64,000 nt of DNA from the NCBI RefSeq assembly GCF_003019035.1, contig NZ_CP027447.1. One strand, given 5' to 3'. Below the pieces are notes generated by a model. The model was given only the letters and a program-made list of their open reading frames with translations. It had not been told where the DNA came from and did no database searches. A program made the position numbers and the translations under genes. Origin of the DNA: Escherichia coli (GTDB lineage: Bacteria > Pseudomonadota > Gammaproteobacteria > Enterobacterales > Enterobacteriaceae). This document shows, piece after piece, positions 10,804 through 31,240 of the stretch (the stretch's first letter is position 1; each line of letters opens with the position of its first letter).

Positions 10804-11623
10804 AAGGATAAATGGCGTTCTCTGTATTTATTCGCAATTATCTGTAGGACAAATATGGAGAGCTTGATGAGTCAGAGCTAAAACAGCAATTGATTAATAA
10901 ACATGTTGATTTATTCAAGAAAATGGATGTATTTTAAATATTGATTCTTAATATAACCTAATCAATAGATTATCACGTGAGAGCTGCACATTATTGGAGG
11001 GGCAGGGGAAAACACCATTTTGGGAACAATGCATCAGGTACTCTTACCACTGAAGCAAGATCATCCGGGCACCAGGTGGTGGTGCAGTGCTTTGGAAATG
11101 GTCCCCTCGGGGGAGTTGTCATTATTTTCTATGCTATTTGCTTATTATATTCATCAGGTGAATTTAATAAATTCCTAATTTGAAATATCCACTATTAAGC
11201 TAGTGTTTAACGACGTTAAGATGGCAATGTGCAGATCATGTTATCAGGGTGGGGCGGTAGCGTATATTCCTTATACAAACCATCATTCATTTCAATGATT
11301 GTTATTGAATTATTTATTGTTGTGAATAAAAAGACATTATGAATATTGGTTTGACTTTGCATATCAGGTTTTTTATTACTCGCTGTAATGTACGAGCCTG
11401 TCGTGAATAACGTCGAGAACCCATCCGTTGCGTTTGTGATTATTTTGTTGACTAAACAGACACCCGTTTCTCTGAAGTAAAATCCCAGACTAAATCATCA
11501 CATAACCATGACATTTTTCTGATATTCCCCGGTAACGCCAGATGTCGACTCGCTTATCTCATCCGCCCGACATGTTGTACATGCAATATGTGCGGATTAT
11601 TATTCATTTTCACGGAGGTTGCT

Positions 11624-13732
11624 ATGTCAACCGGATTACGTTTCACGCTGGAAGTGGACGGCCTGCCACCGGACGCGTTTGCGGTGGTTTCCTTTCATCT
11701 CACCCAGTCACTCTCTTCACTTTTTTCCCTTGACCTTTCTCTGGTCAGTCAGCAGTTTCTCTCCCTTGAATTTGCGCAGGTGCTGGACAAAATGGCCTAC
11801 CTGACGGTATGGCAGGGCGATGACGTACAGCGCCGGGTGAAAGGCGTGGTGACCTGGTTTGAACTCGGGGAGAACGACAAAAACCAGATGCTGTACAGCA
11901 TAAAGGTGCGCCCGCCGCTGTGGCGGGCAGGACTGCGTCAGAACTTCCGTATCTTCCAGAACGAGGACATCAGAAGCATCCTCGGCACCATACTGCAGGA
12001 AAATGACGTCACGGAGTGGAGTCCGCTGTTCAGCGAGCCGCATCCTTCCCGTGAGTTTTGTGTCCAGTACGGCGAAACCGATTACGATTTCCTGTGCCGG
12101 ATGGCGGCGGAGGAAGGCATCTTCTTTTATGAGGAGCACGCGCAAAAAAGTACCGACCAGAGCCTGGTCCTGTGCGACACCGTGCGTTATCTGCCGGAGT
12201 CCTTTGAGATCCCCTGGAATCCGAACACCCGTACCGAGGTGAGCACCCTATGCATCAGCCAGTTCCTCTACAGCGCACAAATCCGCCCATCTTCCGTGGT
12301 GACCAAAGACTACACCTTTAAACGACCCGGCTGGGCAGGGCGTTTTGATCAGGAAGGCCAGCACCAGGATTACCAGCGCACACAGTATGAAGTGTATGAC
12401 TACCCCGGACGTTTCAAGGGTGCCCACGGGCAGAACTTTGCCTGCTGGCAGATGGATGGCTGGCGAAACAACGCAGAAGTGGCGCGCGGAACAAGCCGTT
12501 CGCCGGAGATATGGCCGGGACGGCGAATTGCGCTGACGGGGCATCCGCAGGCGAACCTGAACCGGGAATGGCAGGTGGTGGCAAGTGAACTGCACGGCGA
12601 GCAGCCGCAGGCGGTGCCGGGACGCAGTGGTTCAGGTACCACGCTGAATAACCACTTTGCGGTAATACCGGCAGACAGAACATGGCGGCCACAGCCGTTG
12701 CTGAAACCGCTGGTGGACGGCCCGCAGAGCGCCGTCGTGACGGGACCGGCAGGAGAAGAAATCTTCTGTGATGAACATGGCCGCGTGCGGGTGAAATTTA
12801 ACTGGGACCGTTATAACCCGTCAAACCAGGACAGTTCATGCTGGATCCGTGTGGCACAGGCGTGGGCAGGCACCGGGTTTGGTAACCTGGCGATACCGCG
12901 TGTGGGTCAGGAGGTCATTGTGGACTTCCTCAACGGCGATCCGGACCAGCCGATTATTATGGGGCGCACCTACCACCAGGAAAACCGCACCCCCGGCAGC
13001 CTGCCGGGAACAAAGACGCAAATGACCATTCGTTCAAAAACCTATAAGGGCAGCGGGTTTAATGAACTGAAGTTTGACGATGCGACAGGGAAAGAACAGG
13101 TCTACATCCACGCGCAGAAGAACATGAACACCGAGGTGCTGAATAACCGCACCACGGATGTGATAAACAACCATGCTGAGACCATCGGCAACAATCAGGT
13201 GATTGCGGTTACCAACAATCAGATACAGACGGTGGGCGTTAACCAGATAGAGACGGTGGGCAGTAACCAGATCATTAAAGTGGGCTCTGTTCAGGTGGAA
13301 ACGATTGGACTTGTTCGTGCGCTGACTGTGGGCGTGGCGTATCAGACGACGGTAGGTGGCATTATGAACACCTCGGTGGCCCTGATGCAGTCCTCGCAGA
13401 TCGGTTTGCATAAATCGTTGATGGTCGGGCTGGGTTATGACGTCAAAGTCGGAAATAACGTTACCTTCACCGTTGGTAAAACGAAAAAGGATGATACCGG
13501 GCAGACCGCGATTTACTCCGCCGGTGAGCATCTGGAACTCTGCTGTGGTAAGGCAAGGCTGGTGCTGACTAAGGACGGACAAATTTTTCTCAACGGCACA
13601 AAAATTCATTTGCAGGGTAAGGAGCAGGTTAATGGTGACTCACTGTTGATTAACTGGAACTGTGCAGCCTCGAAATCCCCACCGAAGACCCCTGATGAAA
13701 AGCAGGATACGCCGGATATGAGAGAGTACTGA
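11624..13732 (+). CDS. vgrG: Type VI secretion spike protein VgrG, 702 aa
   Basis: ATG at 11624 with GGAGG ribosome-binding site; gp27/gp5-like VgrG sequence (…VDFLNGDPDQPIIMGRTYHQEN…); followed 66 nt later by an rhs start. Confidence 0.85.
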   Translation: MSTGLRFTLEVDGLPPDAFAVVSFHLTQSLSSLFSLDLSLVSQQFLSLEFAQVLDKMAYLTVWQGDDVQRRVKGVVTWFELGENDKNQMLYSIKVRPPLWRAGLRQNFRIFQNEDIRSILGTILQENDVTEWSPLFSEPHPSREFCVQYGETDYDFLCRMAAEEGIFFYEEHAQKSTDQSLVLCDTVRYLPESFEIPWNPNTRTEVSTLCISQFLYSAQIRPSSVVTKDYTFKRPGWAGRFDQEGQHQDYQRTQYEVYDYPGRFKGAHGQNFACWQMDGWRNNAEVARGTSRSPEIWPGRRIALTGHPQANLNREWQVVASELHGEQPQAVPGRSGSGTTLNNHFAVIPADRTWRPQPLLKPLVDGPQSAVVTGPAGEEIFCDEHGRVRVKFNWDRYNPSNQDSSCWIRVAQAWAGTGFGNLAIPRVGQEVIVDFLNGDPDQPIIMGRTYHQENRTPGSLPGTKTQMTIRSKTYKGSGFNELKFDDATGKEQVYIHAQKNMNTEVLNNRTTDVINNHAETIGNNQVIAVTNNQIQTVGVNQIETVGSNQIIKVGSVQVETIGLVRALTVGVAYQTTVGGIMNTSVALMQSSQIGLHKSLMVGLGYDVKVGNNVTFTVGKTKKDDTGQTAIYSAGEHLELCCGKARLVLTKDGQIFLNGTKIHLQGKEQVNGDSLLINWNCAASKSPPKTPDEKQDTPDMREY

Positions 13733-13798
13733 TCCCGTACCTGTTCAGTATTCAGTAACAAACAAGCATTAAAAATAAACAGAAGAAGGAATTGAATC

Positions 13799-13815
13799 AT
13801 GAGCGGAAAACCAGC
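13799..13815 (+). pseudogene. rhs start stub (ATG plus 14 nt) cut off by the H-repeat element
   Basis: atgagcggaaaaccagc matches the first 17 nt of the full-length rhs at 21550 (atgagcggaaaacccgc) at 15 of 17 positions; sits at the usual distance after the vgrG stop. Confidence 0.45.
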
Positions 13816-15106
13816 CAGGGAAAGATCATCAGAAGTACACTTTTTGTACTAAACAATTCGCATTTTATGTTTAAAAATTGAGATATTCCTCATTACCTGA
13901 AGCTGTTTTTTATTGCTTATACATGATCAAATACTCCTTACATAATTAAGGAGAACAAAATGGAACTTAAAAAATTGATGGAGCATATTTCTATTATCCC
14001 CGATTACAGACAAGCCTGGAAAGTGGAACATAAATTATCGGACATTCTACTGTTGACTATTTGTGCCGTTATTTCTGGTGCAGAAGGCTGGGAAGATATA
14101 GAGGATTTTGGGGAAACACATCTCGATTTTTTGAAGCAATATGGTGATTTTGAAAATGGTATTCCTGTTCACGATACCATTGCCAGAGTTGTATCCTGTA
14201 TCAGTCCTGCAAAATTTCACGAGTGCTTTATTAACTGGATGCGTGACTGCCATTCTTCAGATGATAAAGGCGTCATTGCAATTGATGGAAAAACGCTCCG
14301 GCACTCTTATGACAAGAGTCGCCGCAGGGGAGCGATTCATGTCATTAGTGCGTTCTCAACAATGCACAGTCTGGTCATCGGACAGATCAAGACGGATGAG
14401 AAATCCAATGAGATTACAGCTATCCCAGAACTTCTTAACATGCTGGATATTAAAGGAAAAATCATCACAACTGATGCGATGGGTTGCCAGAAAGATATTG
14501 CAGAGAAGATACAAAAACAGGGAGGTGATTATTTATTCGCTGTAAAAGGAAATCAGGGGCGGCTTAATAAAGCCTTTGAGGAAAAATTTCCACTGAAAGA
14601 ATTAAATAATCCAGAGCATGACAGTTACGCAATGAGTGAAAAGAGTCACGGCAGAGAAGAAATCCGTCTTCACATTGTTTGCGATGTCCCTGATGAACTT
14701 ATTGATTTCACGTTTGAATGGAAAGGTCTGAAGAAATTATGCGTGGCAGTCTCCTTTCGGTCAATAATAGCAGAACAAAAGAAAGAGCCAGAAATGACGG
14801 TCAGATATTATATCAGTTCTGCTGATTTAACCGCAGAGAAGTTCGCCACAGCAATCCGAAACCACTGGCACGTGGAGAATAAGCTGCACTGGCGTCTGGA
14901 CGTGGTAATGAATGAAGACGACTGCAAAATAAGAAGAGGAAACGCCGCAGAATTATTTTCAGGGATACGGCACATCGCTATTAATATTTTAACGAATGAT
15001 AAGGTATTCAAGGCAGGGTTAAGACGTAAGATGCGAAAAGCTGCCATGGACAGAAACTATCTCGCGTCAGTCCTTGCGGGGAGCGGGCTTTCGTAATCTT
15101 TCCCTG
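13816..15106 (+). mobile_element. H-repeat (ISAs1-family) insertion sequence, copy 1, about 1291 bp
   Basis: Terminal inverted repeats cagggaaagat… (13816) and …atctttccctg (ending 15106); encloses the transposase gene. Confidence 0.75.
13960..15096 (+). CDS. H-repeat-associated (ISAs1-family) transposase, 378 aa
   Basis: Track ORF; about 99% identical to the ORFs at 18738..19874 and 26492..27628. Confidence 0.85.
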
Positions 15107-16889
15107 GCTGCTGGAGTTCACGCGCGACCGCCTGCACCGGGAGACGGTGCGCAGCTTCGGCAGCATGGCAGGCAGTAATGCCGCATACGAACTGACCAGC
15201 ACATACACCCCCGCAGGCCAGTTACAGAGCCAGCACCTGAACAGCCTGGTATATGACCGTGACTACGGGTGGAGTGACAACGGCGACCTGGTGCGCATCA
15301 GCGGCCCGCGACAGACGCGGGAATACGGCTACAGCGCCACGGGCAGGCTGGAGAGTGTGCGCACCCTCGCACCGGACCTGGACATCCGCATCCCGTATGC
15401 CACGGACCCGGCGGGCAACCGGCTGCCGGACCCGGAGCTGCACCCGGACAGTACACTCACAGTGTGGCCGGATAACCGAATCACCGAAGACGCGCACTAC
15501 CTGTACCGTTACGATGAATACGGCAGGCTGACGGAGAAGACGGACCGCATCCCGGCGGGTGTGATACGGACGGACGACGAGCGGACCCACCACTACCGCT
15601 ACGACAGCCAGCACCGCCTGGTGTTCCACACGCGGATACAGCATGGCGAGCCACTGGTCGAGAGCCGCTACCTCTACGACCCGCTGGGACGGCGAATGGC
15701 AAAACGGGTCTGGCGGCGGGAGCGTGACCTGACGGGGTGGATGTCGCTGTCGCGTAAACCGGAGGAGACATGGTACGGGTGGGACGGCGACAGGCTGACG
15801 ACGGTGCAGACTGACACCACACGTATCCAGACGGTCTACCAGCCGGGGAGCTTCACGCCGCTCATCCGTATCGAGACAGAGAACGGCGAACGGGAGAAAA
15901 TGCAACGCCGCAGCCTGGCGGAGAAGTTACAGTCGGAAGGGAGTGAGGACGGTCACGGTGTGGTGTTCCCGGCTGAGCTGGTGAGGATGCTGGACAGGCT
16001 GGAGGAAGAAATCCGGGCAGACCGCGTGAGCAGTGAAAGCCGGGCGTGGCTTGCGCAGTGCGGGCTGACGGTGGAGCAACTGGCCAGACAGGTGGAGCCG
16101 GAATACACACCGGCGCGAAAAGTTCATTTTTACCACTGCGACCACCGGGGCCTGCCGCTGGCGCTCATCAGCGAAGACGGCAATACGGTGTGGAGCGGGG
16201 AGTATGATGAATGGGGCAACCAGCTTAATGAGGAGAACCCGCATCATGTGTATCAGCCATACCGCCTGCCGGGGCAGCAGTATGATGAGGAGTCGGGGCT
16301 GTACTATAACCGCAACCGGTACTATGATCCGTTGCAGGGGAGGTATATTACCCAGGATCCGATTGGGCCGGTGGGGGGGTGGAATCCCTATAGTTATGTG
16401 CTTATTAATCCAGCCCAGTTTATTGACCCAACAGGTTTAACTCAAGAGGACAATTGGACCTATGGTGAGGTAGGTAATAGCTGTGTTACGAGTCAACGCG
16501 ATTTTACTCCCCCGCCCGGACTTGCGGATATGAAAGCCAGCATTGGCGCTGCCTGCTCAAGAAACAATGCTTCCAGAAACTGCCACCCCGTAGATGGTAG
16601 TAATGCTTCTGCACCATCGGATAAAGCCGCATGGGAAAATATTCAAAATGCGACAAATGGTAAAGATTTATCTGGTGGTGGAAATATGTTTTGTGTAGGA
16701 AATGAGGACTGTGCGGTTGTTCATAGCTGTCGTGAAATAGTTAATGCTCGACACCCGGCAGGACGAGTGCGTGAACGTGTAACTCCGTTAACAACGTCAG
16801 GAACAGCAACGCTCAATGGAACAACAGTTTACTTTTATAATGATCCCCGGAATGGCAATTGTCCTGCTCACGAATATATTCCTCAATAA
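15107..16889 (+). pseudogene. N-terminally truncated rhs: 3' core (YD repeats) plus a distinct Cys-rich C-terminal tip
   Basis: Near-identical at nucleotide level to 23994..25260 of the full-length rhs; track ORF 15147..16889; tip after the DPxGL-type core boundary (…IDPTGL) is unrelated to the full-length tip. Confidence 0.75.
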
Positions 16890-16939
16890 AGAAAAGTGGC
16901 CAGACTAAGCTCTAGCCACATTTTTTGGAGATCCTTTTC

Positions 16940-17563
16940 ATGAAAAGGTTTTTTATAACATGTTGCGTTATGACATTATTTTTATTTGTTAAATGTAAAG
17001 CAGCGTGTGTAACTTCCTTATATGAGGTTCAGCAATCGCTCTTTACATACATTTATTTGATTAGACAAGACCCTGTTCATTTTGATTCATATATTAAGAA
17101 TGTGCATAACGAATTAAAAATATTCCATGATATTGATAAAGCAATGAATATAGCCTCAGATATGGTCAAAATTATTGATATAAAGACCCGTTTATCATTT
17201 AATAATGATTTATATATATTACAAGGGGAACGACAGTATGCAATAGTTAAGAGTGAAGGGGAAAGTAGTCAATTAAAATCATCAGCATTTATCATATCTA
17301 ATTACCCACTATTTAAAAACAAAGTTCTGTTAATTTTATCCGCTACTAGTCCCGTTCAGTTGGTTATATTGTCTTTTGATCAATGTCTTAATGTGGAGGT
17401 GTTATTTGATTCAATGTCTCCAGTTTTCGCTAAGTATAGAGAAGATATTAGTGCAACATTACCATTATGGAAGGTTATTTTGACAAAAAATGATATAGAA
17501 TTATATGAGTACCATAGAACAAATCCATACTCACTTAACAAATTATTGAGCATGTCAAAATAA
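16940..17563 (+). CDS. Putative cognate immunity protein with signal peptide, about 207 aa
   Basis: ATG at 16940 with GGAG ribosome-binding site; AT-rich; directly downstream of the rhs tip; N-terminal hydrophobic signal-like segment. Confidence 0.55.
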   Translation: MKRFFITCCVMTLFLFVKCKAACVTSLYEVQQSLFTYIYLIRQDPVHFDSYIKNVHNELKIFHDIDKAMNIASDMVKIIDIKTRLSFNNDLYILQGERQYAIVKSEGESSQLKSSAFIISNYPLFKNKVLLILSATSPVQLVILSFDQCLNVEVLFDSMSPVFAKYREDISATLPLWKVILTKNDIELYEYHRTNPYSLNKLLSMSK

Positions 17564-17743: not shown

Positions 17744-18004
17744 CAGGGCAGGGCGGGATCGTGAATATTGTGATGCATATCACATGAACTCCTGGTTTTA
17801 ACTTATTATTTCGGTTAAAATTTAACCACTGAAATCATTAGGATTCGAGCAAAGGGACGGCATATGGATATTCAAAATTTACTGGATTATATTTCTATAA
17901 TTCCTGATTATCGTCAGCAAGGGAAAATAAGGCATAAATTGTCAGATATTTTATTGCTCACTATATGTGCTATTATTGCCGGTTCTGATGAATGGGAGGA
18001 TATT
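17744..18004 (+). mobile_element. Remnant A of an ISAs1-family element (left end plus 5' transposase), interrupted by remnant B
   Basis: IR-like end cagggcagggcgggatcgtg at 17744; transposase N-terminus [21 protein letters not shown]… from 17864. Confidence 0.5.
17864..18004 (+). pseudogene. ISAs1-family transposase 5' fragment (about 46 codons)
   Basis: Homologous to the N-terminus of the intact H-repeat transposases; ends where the next element's end begins. Confidence 0.5.
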
Positions 18005-18593
18005 CAGGGCAAGATCATGAAAATCGTGATGTAAATCACAATTTTCAACCTGGCTTTAACTCCTTCAGGAGATTAAAATTTAACCTATGGAATAACTAAA
18101 AAGATAAAAAAGGACGCCAGATGAGTATTCAAAGTTTGCTTGATTATATTTCAGTGTTCCCTGATATACGACAACAAGGAAAGGTTAAACATAAATTATC
18201 TGATATTTTGTTTCTCACCGTATGTGCAGTAATTGCAGGTGCCGATGAGTGGCAGGAAATTGAAGATTTTGGACATGAAAGACTGGAATGGCTAAAGAAA
18301 TATGGTGATTTTGATAATGGCATTCCGGTCGATGACACCATTGCACGCGTTGTGAGTAACATTGACAGTTTGGCCTTTGAAAAGATGTTTATTGAATGGA
18401 TGCAGGAGTGCCATGAAATCACTGATGGTGAAATTATAGCAATAGATGGAAAGACCATAAGAGGCTCCTTTGATAAGGGAAAAAGGAAAGGAGCAATCCA
18501 TATGGTGAGTGCATTCTCGACTGAAAATGGTGTTGTACTGGGGCAGGTGAAAACGGAAGCCAAAAGTAATGAGATTACAGCCATTCCAGAGTT
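18005..18593 (+). mobile_element. Remnant B of an ISAs1-family element, interrupted by intact copy 2
   Basis: IR-like end cagggcaagatcatgaaaatcg at 18005; transposase 5' ORF from 18121; homology stops at 18593 where copy 2 IR-L begins. Confidence 0.55.
18121..18593 (+). pseudogene. ISAs1-family transposase N-terminal fragment (about 158 codons, divergent paralog)
   Basis: Track ORF 18121..18630 reads through into the next element's end; roughly 60-70% identical by eye to the intact H-repeat transposase. Confidence 0.6.
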
Positions 18594-19884
18594 CAGGGAA
18601 AGATCATCAGAAGTACACTTTTTGTACTAAACAATTCGCATTTTATGTTTAAAAATTGAGATATTCCTCATTACCTGAAGCTGTTTTTTATTGCTTATAC
18701 ATGATCAAATACTCCTTACATAATTAAGGAGAACAAAATGGAACTTAAAAAATTGATGGAACATATTTCTATTATCCCCGATTACAGACAAGCCTGGAAA
18801 GTGGAACATAAATTATCGGATATTCTACTGTTGACTATTTGTGCCGTTATTTCGGGTGCAGAAGGCTGGGAAGATATAGAGGATTTTGGGGAAACACATC
18901 TCGATTTTTTGAAGCAATATGGTGATTTTGATAATGGTATTCCTGTTCACGATACCATTGCCAGAGTTGTATCCTGTATCAGTCCTGCAAAATTTCACGA
19001 GTGCTTTATTAACTGGATGCGTGACTGCCATTCTTCAGATGATAAAGACGTCATCGCAATTGATGGAAAAACACTCCGGCATTCTTATGACAAGAGTCGC
19101 CGCAGGGGAGCGATTCATGTCATTAGTGCGTTCTCAACAATGCACAGTCTGGTCATCGGACAGATCAGGACGGATGAGAAATCCAATGAGATCACAGCTA
19201 TCCCTGAACTTCTTAACATGCTGGATATTAAAGGAAAAATTATCACAACTGATGCAATGGGTTGCCAGAAAGATATTGCAGAGAAGATACAAAAACAGGG
19301 CGGTGATTATTTATTCGCTGTAAAAGGAAATCAGGGTCGGCTAAATAAAGCCTTTGAGGAAAAATTCCCACTGAAAGAATTAAATAATCCAGAACATGAC
19401 AGTTACGCAATGAGTGAAAAGAGTCACGGCAGAGAAGAAATCCGTCTTCACATTGTTTGCGATGTCCCTGATGAACTTATTGATTTCACGTTTGAATGGA
19501 AAGGTCTGAAGAAATTATGCGTGGCAGTCTCCTTTCGGTCAATAATAGCAGAACAAAAGAAAGAGCCAGAAATGACGGTCAGATATTATATCAGTTCTGC
19601 TGATTTAACCGCAGAGAAGTTCGCCACAGCAATCCGAAACCACTGGCACGTGGAGAATAAGCTGCACTGGCGTCTGGACGTGGTAATGAATGAAGACGAC
19701 TGCAAAATAAGAAGAGGAAACGCCGCAGAATTATTTTCAGGGATACGGCACATCGCTATTAATATTTTGACGAATGATAAGGTATTCAAGGCAGGGTTAA
19801 GACGTAAGATGCGAAAAGCTGCCATGGACAGAAACTATCTCGCGTCAGTCCTTGCGGGGAGCGGGCTTTCGTAATCTTGCCCTG
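18594..19884 (+). mobile_element. H-repeat (ISAs1-family) insertion sequence, copy 2, about 1291 bp
   Basis: IR-L cagggaaagatcatcag at 18594; IR-R …atcttgccctg ending 19884; same length as copy 1. Confidence 0.75.
18738..19874 (+). CDS. H-repeat-associated (ISAs1-family) transposase, 378 aa
   Basis: Track ORF; near-identical to copies 1 and 3. Confidence 0.85.
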
Positions 19885-19896
19885 CTTTGTAATGGT

Positions 19897-20079
19897 ATGG
19901 CAGGAGGATATGAATTTGCAGTAAGTAAATTTGGTCAGTCGGCCTATGATGCCGCACAGGAAAAAGCATTAAATAACTATATGGAATTTGAAATGTTAGA
20001 TTTATTACAAAGCATGGGAGAGAATGTCAATCCAGATGAATATAAGCAGGCGCATGATAGAGTTGTTAATCCAAATTGA
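19897..20079 (+). CDS. Small hypothetical protein, about 60 aa, possibly a toxin-tip remnant
   Basis: ATG at 19897 just after copy 2 IR-R; track ORF 19852..20079 starts inside the insertion sequence; ends 15 nt before the next gene's ATG. Confidence 0.3.
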   Translation: MAGGYEFAVSKFGQSAYDAAQEKALNNYMEFEMLDLLQSMGENVNPDEYKQAHDRVVNPN

Positions 20080-20093
20080 ATGCAGAGGGGAGT

Positions 20094-20657
20094 ATGTTAT
20101 TAAAACTGATAATGTTATTTTCAATATTTTTTATCCCGTTTTTGGCAGGTTGCAGTATGTTTGATGATGTTTTTGAGAAAAACTACTCATTGAGTTCTGT
20201 CGCCAGTTTTCCAGATGACGTTGATGAATTAAAAGAAATATGGTTTTTTTGTGAAAGATGTTTAAGTGATGAGCAGTGCGAAAATCATGACATTAAACAA
20301 TGTAGAGATGTAACTATTCCCGGTAGAGATGAAGCATTAAGTAAAGCTGTAGGCAGAGCCAATGTCGAAGCTGTTTACTTTCTTGTTGATGTGGCAAAAA
20401 CTGATGTCAATGGTATTACAGGTAAATATAAGGAAACACCATTAATTATTGCTGCATATTATGGAACTCAAGCACATCAGGATATAGCTGAATTTTTGCT
20501 ATTGCATGGGGCAGATATTAATAAAACTTACCCAGCCATTGGGCGAAATCCTCTAGGTGTCGCCAGATGGAAGCATAATGTCGATTTCGTTAATTTTCTA
20601 CTGAAGCATGGTGCTGAACCAGCAGTACATATGGGGTCGATTGAGAATAAAGAGTGA
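20094..20657 (+). CDS. Ankyrin-repeat lipoprotein, about 187 aa, immunity-like
   Basis: ATG at 20094 with GAGGGGA ribosome-binding site; lipobox FLAGC; ankyrin repeats (…TPLIIAAYYG…LLLHGADIN…). Confidence 0.6.
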   Translation: MLLKLIMLFSIFFIPFLAGCSMFDDVFEKNYSLSSVASFPDDVDELKEIWFFCERCLSDEQCENHDIKQCRDVTIPGRDEALSKAVGRANVEAVYFLVDVAKTDVNGITGKYKETPLIIAAYYGTQAHQDIAEFLLLHGADINKTYPAIGRNPLGVARWKHNVDFVNFLLKHGAEPAVHMGSIENKE

Positions 20658-21100
20658 GATTTAACAAAAATGCAATTCATGCTCTCGCCTTGGGTGACGG
20701 TATTGATACTGCTTTTAAGTGTTCAGGAAAAATGGAAAGTGGTAAACCCTTAAAATCTTCGGGCAAATGGGATTACTCTGTTGGTGGGACAAATGGTGCC
20801 TTTCTTTATCTTAAAGACTATTCAAATATTTTGACGGCTGGCCACACAGGAAATCTGGCAGTTACTTTTCTTGGAAGTTACAATGCTCAATATTCAATAA
20901 ACGGAAACTCTCTGGATGTAGTTGTAACAAATTCTTCAACGATACAATCAGCGACACATCCCCCAATCCTGGAGTATACAAAATGGTGGCAGGATAATAT
21001 TGGTAATCCTTTGGATAGAAAATTTCAAAAAGGTCCCACGTCCCCAAAAACACAAACCATAAATTTACACTTTGATTTGTCATGTGCGTGCAAAAAATGA
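20654..21100 (+). CDS. Hypothetical protein, 148 aa, no signal peptide
   Basis: Track ORF with GTG start overlapping the upstream stop (GTGA) and stop overlapping the downstream ATG; no recognisable domain. Confidence 0.35.
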   Translation: MRFNKNAIHALALGDGIDTAFKCSGKMESGKPLKSSGKWDYSVGGTNGAFLYLKDYSNILTAGHTGNLAVTFLGSYNAQYSINGNSLDVVVTNSSTIQSATHPPILEYTKWWQDNIGNPLDRKFQKGPTSPKTQTINLHFDLSCACKK

Positions 21101-21480
21101 AAATTTTATTTATGTTATTATTAATTATCTTGAGTGGATGTGATGGCGAAAATGATGCCAAATTTGTTGGGCAATGGCTTGCTGATATTGATGGTGATAT
21201 AAAATCAGAATTGATCGTGAAGGCAAATGGAATTTTTTATTTCAAGAATATGCCTATGGAGACAGTTTGTCGCGAGGATAAAACATATAAGGCTAATTTT
21301 TTCGGGGATTGGACTATTAATATTGACAATAGGATTGATATTTCAATGGATAATGTTAATTCTGAACGGTGTAATATTCCATCCTCGTATTTAATTAATG
21401 GGTTTTATGATGGTGGATATTTTTTATGTCAGAAAGGATTGTCTTTTTTCCAGACGGACCTGATGAGCCAGGTAATATGA
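21097..21480 (+). CDS. Small lipoprotein, about 127 aa, immunity-like
   Basis: ATG at 21097; lipobox ILSGC; AT-rich. Confidence 0.45.
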   Translation: MKILFMLLLIILSGCDGENDAKFVGQWLADIDGDIKSELIVKANGIFYFKNMPMETVCREDKTYKANFFGDWTINIDNRIDISMDNVNSERCNIPSSYLINGFYDGGYFLCQKGLSFFQTDLMSQVI

Positions 21481-21549
21481 TCATTTATATTAAACAATGA
21501 AAGTATTGATCGTGAGCAGATTAAATATATAAGAAATTAAGGAGATACC

Positions 21550-24500
21550 ATGAGCGGAAAACCCGCGGCACGCCAGGGTGATGCCACGCTGAAAGGCGGT
21601 CCGATAGTCCAGGGGTCAGCGGGGGTGCTGATAGGCGCGCCCACCGGCGTGGCGTGCTCGGTGTGTCCGGGCGGGATGACTTCGGGCAACCCGGTAAATC
21701 CGCTGCTGGGGGCGAAGGTGCTGCCCGGCGAGACGGACCTTGCCCTGCCCGGCCCGCTGCCGTTCATTCTCTCCCGCACCTACAGCAGCTACCGGACGAG
21801 GACGCCTGCCCCGGTGGGCGTTTTCGGCCCCGGCTGGAAAGCGCCTTCGGATATCCGCTTACAGCTACGTGATGACGCACTGATACTCAACGACAACGGC
21901 GGGCGGAGCATTCACTTTGAGCCGCTGCTGCCGGGGGAGGCGGTGTACAGCCGCAGCGAGTCAATGTGGCTGGTGCGCGGTGGTAAGGCAGCGCAGCCGG
22001 ACGGCCACACGCTGGCGCGACTGTGGGGGGCGCTGCCGCCGGATATCCGGTTAAGCCCGCATCTTTACCTGGCGACCAACAGCGCACAGGGGCCGTGGTG
22101 GATACTCGGCTGGTCAGAGCGGGTGCCGGGTACTGAGGACGTACTGCCAGCGCCGCTGCCGCCGTACCGGGTGCTTACCGGGCTGGCGGACCGCTTCGGG
22201 CAGACGCTGACGTACCGGCGTGAGGCCGCCGGTGACCTGGCCGGGGAAATCACCGGCGTGACGGACGGTGCCGGGCGGAAGTTCCGTCTGGTGCTGACCA
22301 CGCAGGCGCAGCGTGCGGAAGAGGCCCGCACCTCTTCGCTATCTTCTTCTGACCGTTCCCGCCCTCTCTCAGCCTCAGCGTTCCCCGACACACTGCCCGG
22401 TACGGAATACGGCCCCGACAGGGGCATCCGTCTTTCGGCGGTGTGGCTGATGCACGACCCGGCATACCCGGAAAGCCTGCCCGGTGCGCCACTGGCGCGG
22501 TACACGTATACGGAAGCCGGTGAACTGCTGGCGGTATATGACCGCAGCAATACGCAGGTGCGCGCTTTCACGTATGACGCGCAGCACCCGGGCCGGATGG
22601 TGGCGCACCGTTACGCGGGAAGGCCGGAGATGCGCTACCGCTACGACGATACGGGGCGGGTGGTGGAGCAACTGAACCCGGCAGGGTTAAGCTACCGCTA
22701 TCTTTATGAGCAGGACCGCATCACCATCACGGACAGCCTGAACCGGCGAGAGGTGCTGCATACAGAAGGCGGGGCCGGGCTGAAGCGGGTGGTGAAAAAA
22801 GAACTGGCGGACGGCAGCGTCACGCACAGCGGGTATGACGCGGCAGGAAGGCTCACGGCACAGACGGACGCGGCGGGACGGCAGACAGAGTACGGTCTGA
22901 ATGTGGTGTCAGGCGATATCACGGACATCACCACGCCGGACGGGCGGGAGACGAAATTTTACTATAACGACGGGAACCAGGTGACGGCAGTGGTGTCCCC
23001 GGACGGGCTGGAGAGCCGCCGGGCGTATGATGAGCGGGACAGGCTGGTAACGGAGACATCGCGCAGTGGGGACGTCATCCGGTATGCTTATGATAATCCG
23101 CACAGTGAATTACCGGCCACGACAACAGATGCGACGGGCAGCACCCGGCAGATGACCTGGAGCCGCTACGGGCAGTTGCTGGCGTTCACCGACTGCTCGG
23201 GCTACCAGACCCGCTATGAATACGACCGCTTCGGCCAGATGACGGCGGTCCACCGCGAGGAAGGCATCAGCCTTTACCGCCGCTATGACAACCGTGGCCG
23301 GTTAACCTCGGTGAAAGACGCACAGGCCCGTGAAACGCAGTATGAGTACAACGCCGCAGGCGACCTGACTGCCGTTATCACCCCGGATGGCAACCGGAGT
23401 GAGACACAGTACGATGGGTGGGGAAAGGCCATCAGCACCACGCAGGGCGGGCTGACGCGCAGTATGGAGTACGATGCTGCCGGACGTATCACCACGCTGA
23501 CTAACGAGAACGGCAGCCACAGCGACTTTAGTTACGATGCGCTGGACCGCCTGATACAGCAGGGCGGCTTTGACGGGCGGACGCAACGTTATCATTATGA
23601 CCTGACCGGAAAACTCACGCAGAGTGAAGATGAGGGGCTTGTCATCCTCTGGTACTACGATGAATCGGACCGTATTACTCACCGCACGGTAAACGGTGAA
23701 CCGGCAGAACAGTGGCGGTATGACGGCCACGGCTGGCTGAGAGAAATCAGCCACCTGAGCGAAGGCCACCGTGTTGCCGTCCACTATGGCTATGATAATA
23801 AAGGCCGCCTGACCAGTGAGCGCCAGACGGTGCATCACCCGGAGACGGGAGAGCTGCTCTGGCAGCATGAGACCGGACATGCGTACAACGAACAGGGGCT
23901 GGCAAACCGCGTCACGCCGGACAGTCTGCCGCCGGTGGAGTGGCTGACCTATGGTAGCGGTTATCTGGCAGGCATGAAGCTGGGCGGGACGCCGCTGCTG
24001 GAGTTCACGCGCGACCGCCTGCACCGTGAGACGGTGCGCAGCTTCGGCAGCATGGCAGGCAGTAATGCCGCATACGAACTGACCAGCACATACACCCCTG
24101 CAGGCCAGTTACAGAGTCAGCACCTGAACAGCCTGGTGTATGACCGTGACTACGGGTGGAATGACAACGGAGACCTGGTGCGCATCAGCGGCCCGCGACA
24201 GACGCGGGAATACGGCTACAGCGCCACGGGCAGGCTGGAGAGTGTGCGCACCCTCGCACCGGACCTGGACATCCGCATCCCGTATGCCACGGACCCGGCG
24301 GGCAACCGGCTGCCGGACCCGGAGCTGCACCCGGACAGTACACTCACAGTGTGGCCGGATAACCGCATCGCGGAGGATGCGCACTATGTCTACCGCCACG
24401 ATGAATACGGCAGGCTGACGGAGAAGACGGACCGCATCCCGGCGGGTGTGATACGGACGGACGACGAGCGGACCCACCACTACCACTACGACAGCCAGCA

Positions 24501-25803
24501 CCGCCTGGTGTTCTACACGCGGATACAGCATGGCGAGCCACTGGTCGAGAGCCGCTACGTCTACGACCCGCAGGGACGGCGAATGGCGAAACGGGTATGG
24601 CGGCGGGAGCGTGACCTGACGGGGTGGATGTCGCTGTCGCGTAAACCGGAGGTGACGTGGTACGGCTGGGACGGCGACCACCTGACGACGGTGCAGACCG
24701 ACAGCACACGTATCCAGACGGTATACGAGCCGGGAAGCTTCACACCGCTCATCCGCATCGAAACAGACAACGGCGAGCGGGAGAAAACGCAGCGGCGGAG
24801 CCTGGCGGAGAAGCTCCAGCAGGAAGGGAGCGAGGACGGACACGGTGTGGTGTTCCCGGCTGAACTGGTGAGGATGCTGGACAGGCTGGAGGAAGAAATC
24901 CGGGCAGACCGCGTGAGCGGTGAAAGCCGGACGTGGCTTGCACAGTGCGGGCTGGCGGTGGAGCAACTGGAAAAACAGGTGGAGCCGGAATACACGCCGG
25001 AACGCACACTGCATCTTTACCACTGCGACCACCGGGGACTGCCGCTGGCGCTTATCAGCGAAGACGGCAATACGGTGTGGAGCGCGGAGTATGATGAATG
25101 GGGAAACCTGCTTAATGAGGAGAACCCGCATCATGTGTATCAGTCATACCGTCTGCCGGGGCAGCAGCATGATGAGGAGTCGGGGCTGTATTATAACCGG
25201 AACCGGTACTATGACCCGCTACAGGGGAGGTATATCACCCAGGATCCAATCGGGCTAAGAGGTGAATGGAATCTGTATAAATATCCATTAAACCCTGTTC
25301 GGTTTATAGATTCTTTGGGTTTAAAATTCCATGTTAACGGTGATCCAAGTGATTTTAATCAGGCTGTTGAGTATTTAAAACAAGATTCACGAATGAAAGA
25401 AGCTATAGATTTTTTATCAAGCTCTGAAGAAACCATAAAGATAGAGTATATTGATGAAACCGACGTTAGATTTGACCCGGATAAAATGACTATATATTGG
25501 AATGGTAAGGCGGCTTTATTTTGTTCAACTGATTTAAAATCGAAATCACAATCACCTGCATTAGGTTTGGGGCATGAGTTTGCTCATGCGCACTTATATC
25601 TTATTGATAAGGATGGTTATATGGGGCTTGTGAGACGTGCGGATGAACAATATAAAAATAAAGAAGAGGCGAGAGTTATCACTTTAATTGAACAGCATGC
25701 GGCGAAAACTTTAGGTGAGTGTACCAGAACAGCATATAATGGAGTGTATTATCGTGTGAATACACCAACGCAGACGGCAACAATAAATGGCACGCCAGAA
25801 TAG
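21550..25803 (+). CDS. Full-length Rhs polymorphic toxin, 1417 aa: PAAR-like N-terminus, YD-repeat shell, HExxH-containing C-terminal tip
   Basis: Track ORF with AAGGAG ribosome-binding site; N-terminus [11 protein letters not shown]…; repeated YD motifs; core boundary …YITQDPIGL…IDSLGL; tip contains [10 protein letters not shown]. Confidence 0.9.
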
Positions 25804-25815
25804 TGAGATTTTTTT

Positions 25816-26265
25816 ATGATGAAATATTTGATGGTTTTATTGTCTCTATTTTCTGCTTCGGTATTGGGGATGGGGCGAGTGAATGAATTGTGTGGAATAG
25901 ATAGTGTGAAAACGATAGAAATAATTAATCTTCCAGCATATGTTACCACCTTAACCCCGCTTAGCAAGGAAGGTCTCAAGAGAATATACAAACATAAAGT
26001 GGTGGTGAATGGAGTTAGCGATTTTTATGCTGGTGAGATAATTGATTTATTGCAAATGAAGTATTTCAGGAAGGAGGAGAATAACGATATAAGATGGGGG
26101 GTTGACATTGTTTCGAATAAAAATAATAAATGTGAAATTTATTTTGATGGTTTTGGTGAATGTGGAAGTGTGAATGGCATTAACGTATGTTTTGAAAAAA
26201 ATGAAATGATAGATTGGATTAAAAAAGAAATCCCTTTTCTGTCGCAAGAAATAGGTGGTCTTTAA
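25816..26265 (+). CDS. Putative cognate immunity protein with signal peptide, 149 aa
   Basis: Track ORF 13 nt after the rhs stop; AT-rich; N-terminus MMKYLMVLLSLFSASVLG. Confidence 0.55.
   Translation: MMKYLMVLLSLFSASVLGMGRVNELCGIDSVKTIEIINLPAYVTTLTPLSKEGLKRIYKHKVVVNGVSDFYAGEIIDLLQMKYFRKEENNDIRWGVDIVSNKNNKCEIYFDGFGECGSVNGINVCFEKNEMIDWIKKEIPFLSQEIGGL

Positions 26266-30014: not shown

Positions 30015-31240
<1,226 letters not shown>

Follow-up and report, generated by a model that had tools for sequence, protein, structure and literature searches.

Four small open reading frames upstream of an intact rhs gene in Escherichia coli: probable remnants of two Rhs toxin tails, each with a putative lipoprotein immunity gene

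Gene content of the module

Four small open reading frames (ORFs) lie just upstream of an intact rhs gene in E. coli contig NZ_CP027447.1, within a stretch of 64 000 nucleotides that was analysed as a whole and is referred to here as the window. The region forms the AT-rich tail of an rhs locus for type VI secretion, in the rhsE/ydcC–nhoA neighbourhood of E. coli. A preliminary reading of the DNA sequence, made without database searches (the sequence-only reading), had described four translationally coupled small genes that could represent two orphan toxin-fragment/immunity pairs or an uncharacterised module. Comparative analysis indicates that the four ORFs are, very probably, two broken-off Rhs toxin tails, each with an intact lipoprotein immunity gene, that arose by recombination and insertion sequence (IS) activity in the rhs locus. 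The four ORFs, with lengths in amino acids (aa), are as follows.

ORF1, 19897..20079, plus strand: ATG at 19897 (alternative TTG at 19852) to TGA ending at 20079; putative Rhs toxin-tail remnant spanning 19885..20079
ORF2, 20094..20657, plus strand: ATG at 20094 (alternative TTG at 20076) to TGA ending at 20657; ankyrin-repeat lipoprotein, 187 aa
ORF3, 20654..21100, plus strand: GTG at 20654 to TGA ending at 21100; putative toxin-domain fragment, 148 aa
ORF4, 21097..21480, plus strand: ATG at 21097 (alternative ATG at 21082) to TGA ending at 21480; lipoprotein, 127 aa

The ORFs were all found, co-directional, on the plus strand, with the stop/start overlaps that had been described: GTGA at 20654-20657 between ORF2 and ORF3, and ATGA at 21097-21100 between ORF3 and ORF4. 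ORF1 and ORF2 are separated by 14 nt. The alternation of signal-less products and lipoproteins was likewise seen. ORF2 has the N-terminus MLLKLIMLFSIFFIPFLAGC with a canonical FLAGC lipobox (LAGC at residues 17-20, Cys20) and Ser at +2, and ORF4 has the N-terminus MKILFMLLLIILSGC with a canonical ILSGC lipobox (Cys15) and Asp at +2, while no signal peptide was detected in ORF1 or ORF3. The ankyrin repeats attributed to one of the lipoproteins are those of ORF2 (Pfam Ank_2, 2.4e-11). A strong Shine-Dalgarno (SD) sequence, GAGGGGAG, precedes ORF2 only; none was found before the ATG of ORF1 at 19897 or the ATG of ORF4, and that of the ORF3 GTG is weak at best. Translational coupling of the four ORFs is predicted from this geometry. 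The GC content of the module is 32–38 % compared with 62 % for the rhs core.

A scan of all four ORFs against NCBIfam returned ankyrin-type noise for ORF2, sub-threshold matches to the signal peptide of EexN lipoproteins and nothing else. No RNA family was detected by Rfam in 19500-21700, and a promoter and terminator scan was uninformative, with site counts not above those of shuffled sequences. Of 5426 complete E. coli genomes, 3 contained the 1.7 kb module. Public databases already contain identical protein sequences, from approximately 42–50 E. coli contigs and from E. albertii, under the names 'hypothetical' or 'ankyrin repeat domain-containing'.

ORF1 and ORF2 in comparison with related strains

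In E. coli D8 (L001), the gene order is vgrG, an intact rhs of 1400 aa (L001:4993-9195), ORF2, ORF3 with a nonsense codon, ORF4 and a second rhs. The window is co-linear with D8 over 19885-22510 at 97.3 % identity (window 19885 onwards corresponds to L001:9001 onwards), and the sequence upstream of 19885 is unrelated. The module sits downstream of an intact rhs1 in D8 and of an ISAs1-disrupted rhs1 in the window. The stop codon of the D8 Rhs is also the stop codon of ORF1. Because of this shared stop and the co-linearity from 19885, ORF1 is identified at the sequence level as the last 64 codons (plus stop) of an Rhs C-terminal toxin tail of phospholipase A2 (PLA2) type, and the 'ATG' at 19897 as an internal Met codon.

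The D8 tail (DPLGQKG...YGCGDES...CRNHDICY...) matches PF09056 (prokaryotic phospholipase A2, 3.9e-5) and PF06951 (PLA2G12, 3.1e-4). Both features of Tox-PLA2, the YGCG Ca-loop (YGCGDES) and the catalytic CxxHDxCY motif (CRNHDICY), are present in this intact tail, and Tox-PLA2 has been found on RHS proteins (PMC3482391). The ORF1 remnant starts 3' of CRNHDICY, leaving the catalytic His-Asp upstream of the breakpoint, and ORF1 therefore cannot be an active toxin. It begins 64 codons before the stop, well past DPLG, and retains no rhs core.

ORF2 lies directly behind the Rhs tail in D8 and in strain 2020CK-00188. In Salmonella enterica subsp. salamae, the gene for a PLA2-type Rhs tail with 51 % identity to that of D8 overlaps by 1 nt with the next gene, which encodes an ankyrin lipoprotein sharing 51 % identity with ORF2 (E 7e-64). 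The tail and its ankyrin partner thus travel and diverge together, which is the pattern of a cognate immunity pair, and ORF2 is accordingly assigned as the putative immunity protein of the PLA2-type Rhs tail. The C-terminus of ORF2 is about 40 residues shorter than that of the Salmonella homolog, so that the ORF2/ORF3 junction may fall within roughly 20628-20680.

Differences between the window and D8 amount to 2 nt in ORF1 (over L001:9001-9195), 6 synonymous and 3 nonsynonymous substitutions in ORF2, 5 and 5 in ORF3, and 2 and 5 in ORF4, which are too few for a verdict from the ratio of nonsynonymous to synonymous rates (dN/dS). The D8 copy of ORF3 (L001 9770..10228) has TGG changed to TGA at codon 39 (W39 to stop) and is unannotated, and ORF4 is intact there; the D8 annotation of ORF4 starts at a downstream Met (122 aa). 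Strain SCU-301 (L002) has the same arrangement as the window at 99.5 % identity. Its sequence contains many single-base homopolymer indels and many annotations as 'frameshifted'; these indels are probably assembly errors and not biology.

ORF3 and a C-terminal toxin domain

The sequence-only reading had proposed looking for the 148-aa ORF3 product as the C-terminal domain of larger toxins, and it was found there. Based on alignments, ORF3 is identified as a displaced fragment of a toxin domain of approximately 170 aa that is found at the C-terminus of Rhs proteins; this copy has diverged and lacks its N-terminal part. A word-indexed search with ORF3 gave 17 relatives. One of these (P0003) starts with '...DAIDPLGL', the end of the Rhs core, and another (P0009) with the end of a YD-repeat core; the homology to ORF3 lies after the boundary in both. 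A profile search of 1.84 billion representatives detected 544 proteins with an ORF3-type domain (counted as representatives at 50 % identity), 231 of them at E<=1e-30. The domain is almost always at the extreme C-terminus, in hosts of up to 2729 aa, and the Rhs-associated core TIGR03696 was located just upstream of it in all six long homologs tested. A stand-alone form of 232 aa occurs in the variable region of a Bacteroidales-type type VI secretion system (T6SS) locus, directly after an Hcp/TssD gene.

An AlphaFold2 (AF2) model of the full 167-aa domain had a mean pLDDT of 90.3 and a pTM of 0.83. Comparison of this model with AFDB50 by Foldseek gave 82 matches, mostly to the C-termini of 'RHS repeat-associated core domain' proteins, which span Bacteroidota, Streptomyces (also ALF-repeat and WXG100/type VII secretion system (T7SS) proteins), Akkermansia and bacteria of the candidate phyla radiation (CPR). 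Pfam had no match for ORF3 or for any member of a 61-sequence alignment of the toxin domain, a sequence-profile search of the PDB with this alignment found no relative and Foldseek of the model against the PDB gave nothing significant. One AFDB match (rank 46) was named 'Bacterial toxin 44 domain'. Ntox44 was rejected as a candidate since its motifs DxK, GNxxxG and DxxxD are not compatible with the family; the matched protein was probably named after another of its domains.

The sole structural lead was a weak fold match to lipid II-degrading enzymes of the colicin M type. The comparators from this family were PaeM (4g76), syringacin M (4fzl), pectocin M1 (8jc1), ColM (3da4) and BtpeA (9jdi), together with the DUF3289 T6SS effectors; DUF3289 has been proposed as a ColM homolog (PMC11148199). 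The colicin M catalytic motif DxYDx5HR was present in none of the 61 domain members, no member matched the Pfam DUF3289/colicin M profile and a literature search for BtpeA gave no information on its activity.

The alignment also locates the truncation. Among the 61 sequences, ORF3 is the sole member without the near-invariant block G10-x-E12-W13-L-T-G16-x-G18-P-R20 (GxEWLTGxGPR), and it carries Ser where the domain has His37. Its HMMER alignment starts at profile position 67, compared with approximately 42–49 for complete domains. The missing block corresponds to helix 1 and strand 1 of the compact fold in the AF2 model. Several stop codons close the ORF3 frame just upstream of 20654, and the block is not encoded in any other frame upstream of this position. 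The point at which ORF3 is cut is also where the ORF2 cassette ends, and the first ~25 residues of the domain are gone. What remains is about 75 % of the domain, including the conserved D74-Y75-S76, N86, N112, S118 and Q153.

These data bear on whether ORF3 could be a functional stand-alone small toxin, i.e. a cargo effector to which ORF4 would confer immunity. The free-standing 232-aa versions beside Hcp genes in Bacteroidales-type T6SS loci are consistent with such a role, as are the share of the domain that is kept and the intact 148-aa frame of ORF3 in most Escherichia copies (approximately 48 contigs of one lineage and two variant alleles have it open over 148 codons). Against this, ORF3 alone among the family members has lost the GxEWLTGxGPR block, has Ser for His37, has neither a delivery domain nor an N-terminal extension, starts at a GTG with a poor SD sequence and is interrupted by a nonsense codon in D8 while ORF4 is intact. 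A functional stand-alone toxin is therefore highly unlikely.

ORF4 and its lipoprotein family

The downstream partners of the toxin domain were examined in nine other independent loci (L004, L006, L008, L009, L010, L011, L012, L013 and L015). In all nine, the gene directly downstream encodes a homologous small protein of 113–165 aa, almost always with a lipobox, and it often overlaps the toxin stop codon by 1–7 nt. Significant BLASTP matches link all of these partners into one family. A hidden Markov model (HMM) built from eight of the downstream partners, with ORF4 excluded, scored ORF4 at 37.0 bits (E 3e-10), compared with no more than 15.7 bits for the best of 2000 shuffles that preserved the signal peptide. 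The closest toxin homolog, P0004, shares 65 % identity with ORF3, and its partner (L015_dn) shares 32 % with ORF4 (BLASTP E 4e-14). Fast divergence of the partner beside a conserved toxin is what immunity proteins usually show. From this conserved position and homology, ORF4 is assigned as the putative cognate immunity protein of the ORF3-type toxin domain.

A word-indexed search with ORF4 found only near-identical Escherichia relatives, Pfam has no family for it, and BLASTP of ORF4 against the downstream gene of L006 was not significant, the kinship being visible only through other members and the HMM. In the Bacteroidales-type T6SS loci (L008:6699-7193 and L009:6699-7196), the C-terminal part of the toxin, GYLDVWKNTVGKKINETFETG, recurs in the last ~25 residues of the immunity-family protein, RYLDAWRNTVGKKINESFETG, which resembles a scar left by recombination during an exchange of cassettes.

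The immunity proteins are lipoproteins in both Proteobacteria and Bacteroidota, and for this reason the ORF3-type toxin is predicted to act, probably, in the periplasm or envelope and outside the cytoplasm. Under the lipoprotein sorting rule of E. coli, Asp at +2 leads to retention in the inner membrane, and the residues following the lipobox predict this location for ORF4. The closest homolog has Ser at +2, so Asp is not a family trait. As ORF4 lacks an SD sequence and shares the ATGA overlap with ORF3, it is probably translated by reinitiation at this overlap, as in native toxin-immunity pairs.

Locus setting and breakpoints

The window contains a yncG-like glutathione S-transferase (GST) gene, vgrG, rhs material, a GNAT gene, yddH and nhoA. 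The features around the module are as follows.

vgrG, 11588..13732: TIGR03361, 2e-187
Start of the disrupted rhs, 13799..13815, plus strand: first 17 nt (ATGAGCGGAAAACCAGC), downstream of vgrG; the same rhs gene whose 3' end is ORF1
ISAs1 copy 1, 13816..15106: cuts the upstream rhs after 17 nt
ISAs1/H-repeat copy 2, 18594..19884, plus strand: transposase ORF at 18738..19874; upstream breakpoint of the module
Intact rhs, 21550..25803, plus strand: 1417 aa, PAAR-like N-terminus, own strong SD sequence, core of 62 % GC

Three full copies of ISAs1 are present in the window; they are near-identical, and each has a 378-aa transposase ORF. The counterpart transposase is annotated as ISAs1 family in D8 and SCU-301. 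The terminal inverted repeats (IRs) are 11 bp, and the right end reads ATCTT(T/G)CCCTG across the copies. Alignment of the three copies placed the left IR of copy 2, CAGGGAAAGAT, from 18594 and its right IR, ATCTTGCCCTG, at 19874-19884. The first ORF had been read as beginning right at an H-repeat boundary, and this is exact: the right IR ends at 19884, one base before the homology to D8 starts at 19885.

A BLAST map against D8 resolved the segment upstream of this junction. Window 11001-13815, covering vgrG and the first 17 nt of rhs1, is co-linear with L001:2195-5009; 13816-15106 is ISAs1; and 15107-17710 matches the 3' part of the second D8 rhs together with its tail, its immunity gene and a fragment of IS1. 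Next come ISAs1-like fragments and then ISAs1 copy 2. This comparison shows that, in the window lineage, an ISAs1/H-repeat-flanked block has taken the place of codons 6 to 1336 of the upstream rhs.

Such heavy rearrangement, with three ISAs1 copies, ISAs1-like fragments and an IS1 fragment, might suggest that the whole segment is neutral debris, in which ORF1 and ORF3 are non-coding relics and ORF2 and ORF4 are decaying. The absence of an SD sequence before ORF4 and its 2 synonymous versus 5 nonsynonymous differences from D8 point the same way. However, ORF2 and ORF4 are intact in every compared strain with a complete, good-quality sequence, and ORF2 has a strong SD sequence and 6 synonymous to 3 nonsynonymous differences. 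Orphan immunity genes are also commonly retained, and the substitutions are, as noted above, too few for dN/dS to decide. Neutral debris is therefore an unlikely explanation of the segment as a whole.

Several further observations concern the flanks of the module. The first rhs of the locus is decapitated by ISAs1 copy 1, and the sole intact rhs (21550) is approximately 7.8 kb from vgrG. Between the two H-repeat copies, a 580-aa 3' rhs fragment (15147..16889) that ISAs1 copy 1 has truncated at the 5' end carries a Cys-rich tail beyond DPTGL (16425), and directly after this fragment lies a gene for a 212-aa exported protein (16925..17563); NCBIfam has no family for either product. The rhs-fragment block is 97 % identical to the 3' part of the second D8 rhs and has thus moved upstream of the module in the window lineage. 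Two partial ORFs of a different ISAs1-like transposase follow at 17864..18034 and 18121..18630, which the SCU-301 annotation gives as an ISEc26 family fragment. The IS1 fragment adjoins these ISEc26-like fragments, forming nested IS debris between the two full H-repeat copies. Downstream of the module, the tail of the intact Rhs (25309..25803, after DSLGL at aa 1254) contains a HEFAH zinc-metallopeptidase-like motif at 25573-25587, and the next gene (25816..26265, 149 aa) has a Sec-type signal peptide. No NCBIfam family was found for this tail or its neighbour, which probably form a further toxin/immunity pair acting on the envelope. At the edge of the locus, between nhoA and yddE, a 326-aa ORF on the minus strand (30035..31015) occupies the place of an IS110-like IS621 transposase in SCU-301, a mobile element.

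Origin of the module

C-terminal displacement is known for rhs genes, and in E. coli it belongs to the literature on 'core-extension' and displacement. The anatomy of the module suggests that an ancestral Rhs carried an ORF3-type toxin domain followed by ORF4, and that a new cassette, consisting of the PLA2-type tail and ORF2, then recombined onto the rhs core. The distal end of this cassette would have landed ~25 residues into the old toxin domain, leaving a displaced ORF3 and an intact ORF4 downstream. In a second step, which is shown by the comparison with D8, the ISAs1/H-repeat-flanked block replaced codons 6-1336 of the rhs and left ORF1. ORF1 and ORF3 would now be inactive remnants, and ORF2 and ORF4 exported orphan immunity lipoproteins that may protect the periplasm or envelope from intact PLA2-type or ORF3-type toxins of neighbours.

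The two orphan toxin-fragment/immunity pairs suggested by the sequence-only reading are thereby upheld: ORF1 is the 3' end of the D8 Rhs, ORF3 belongs to a C-terminal toxin domain, and ORF2 and ORF4 are the conserved downstream partners. The description as four small genes holds for ORF2 and ORF4, which are intact genes, and fails for ORF1 and ORF3, which are gene remnants and not genes themselves. That none of the four has rhs core homology at its 5' end is true of all of them and is accounted for, in the two toxin parts, by the cuts: that of ORF1 lies inside the tail, at the ISAs1 junction, and that of ORF3 inside the toxin domain.

The other possibility that had been left standing was an autonomous, uncharacterised four-gene module, for example of accessory, adaptor or chaperone genes that load the downstream Rhs onto VgrG. 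Its position would suit such a function, as it is co-directional with the intact rhs and immediately upstream of it (the spacer after ORF4 is 69 nt), terminator-like sites in between are not above chance and ORF1, ORF3 and ORF4 have no Pfam or NCBIfam family. Yet the Rhs adaptor families DUF1795/EagR, DUF4123 and DUF2169 were not matched in Pfam and NCBIfam scans of the ORFs, and two of the four products are exported lipoproteins that would not meet a cytoplasmic Rhs. Furthermore, another Rhs gene ends in ORF1, ORF3 has its homologs among C-terminal toxin domains, and in homolog loci no rhs follows the toxin/lipoprotein pair. The comparative evidence gives two toxin-tail/immunity cassettes, and the four-gene module is rejected as extremely improbable.

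Some points weigh against an origin by displacement and replacement. Classical orphan rhs modules retain some homology to the core, whereas neither the ORF1 nor the ORF3 fragment keeps any rhs core (the DPxGL region); as a consequence, neither could be re-armed by simple homologous recombination with a core. The immunity functions and the coupling are predicted from sequence, and the order of the two displacement events is likewise deduced. The maintenance of an open ORF3 could mean residual selection, a point weakened by the nonsense codon in D8 and by the 5 synonymous and 5 nonsynonymous changes relative to the window.

Significance of the ORF3/ORF4-type family

The PLA2/ankyrin pair consists of known domain families, whereas the ORF3/ORF4 pair consists of families with no sequence counterpart in Pfam, NCBIfam or the PDB. 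A wider proposal, namely that the latter is an unnamed, widespread toxin/immunity family with possibly new envelope chemistry and that ORF3 serves in addition as a translational bridge, is tentative and, taken jointly, rather doubtful. With respect to its parts, the ORF3-type domain and the ORF4-type partner may form a widespread toxin/immunity family that is unnamed in the databases searched; no literature search was aimed at the family. The domain is spread over Proteobacteria, Bacteroidota, Actinobacteria, Akkermansia and CPR bacteria, and its carriers include Rhs, ALF-repeat and WXG100/T7SS proteins as well as Bacteroidales T6SS proteins. Its envelope-directed chemistry may be new, possibly that of a lipid II hydrolase that resembles colicin M very distantly and has another active site. 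Lastly, the dead ORF3 may be kept open as a translational bridge, on which ribosomes from the ORF2 ribosome-binding site would reinitiate at GTGA and then at ATGA. If so, this would be the sole way to express ORF4, an orphan immunity gene without an SD sequence.

For annotation, two 'hypothetical proteins' can be renamed as putative Rhs toxin remnants and two as putative orphan immunity lipoproteins. The history of the locus can be reconstructed as cassette displacement followed by ISAs1-mediated replacement of rhs. Through ORF4, lineages of E. coli and E. albertii keep a putative immunity to an ORF3-type toxin. The family is common across phyla and secretion systems, and a full-length ORF3-type homolog is a reasonable candidate for characterisation.

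Comparison with known systems

The ORF1/ORF2 pair resembles the T6SS lipase Tle of Enterobacter cloacae, proposed to belong to the Tle6 group, and its periplasmic immunity factor Tli, an ankyrin-repeat lipoprotein (PMC11470151). Both systems would combine a lipid-hydrolysing T6SS toxin with a periplasmic ankyrin-repeat lipoprotein immunity protein, the analogy being one of function. The toxins differ: Tle is an alpha/beta-hydrolase, whereas the toxin here is a tail of PLA2 fold (PF09056/PF06951) fused to Rhs. For Tli, translation from internal starts additionally yields a cytosolic form (PMC11470151). An in-frame ATG of ORF2 (20154..20159, codon 22), which lies two codons past the Cys of the lipobox (LAGCSMFDD), recalls this alternative start; a dual role of ORF2 like that of Tli is pure speculation.

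The ISAs1 copies show nothing unusual in comparison with the H-repeat elements (ISAs1 family) of E. coli rhs loci. As in those loci, near-identical copies with terminal IRs lie at the rhs breakpoints, and two of them bracket the block that replaced nearly the whole upstream rhs.

The module as a whole conforms to the polymorphic-toxin cassette model of Zhang et al. 2012 (PMC3482391) and is closest to displaced Rhs tails. It differs from orphan modules of this type in that neither fragment has any rhs core and in its breakpoints, which are an ISAs1 IR and a site ~25 residues inside the toxin domain; core–core re-arming recombination as in Salmonella is not possible for the window fragments. Rhs displacement with orphan toxin-immunity modules was reportedly described by Koskiniemi and colleagues in 2014 (PLoS Genet e1004255). 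The features that the module shares with displaced Rhs tails are a GC-rich core with AT-rich tails, linkage to vgrG, a new cassette at the core with an older fragment and its immunity gene pushed downstream, and intact immunity genes beside truncated toxin parts.

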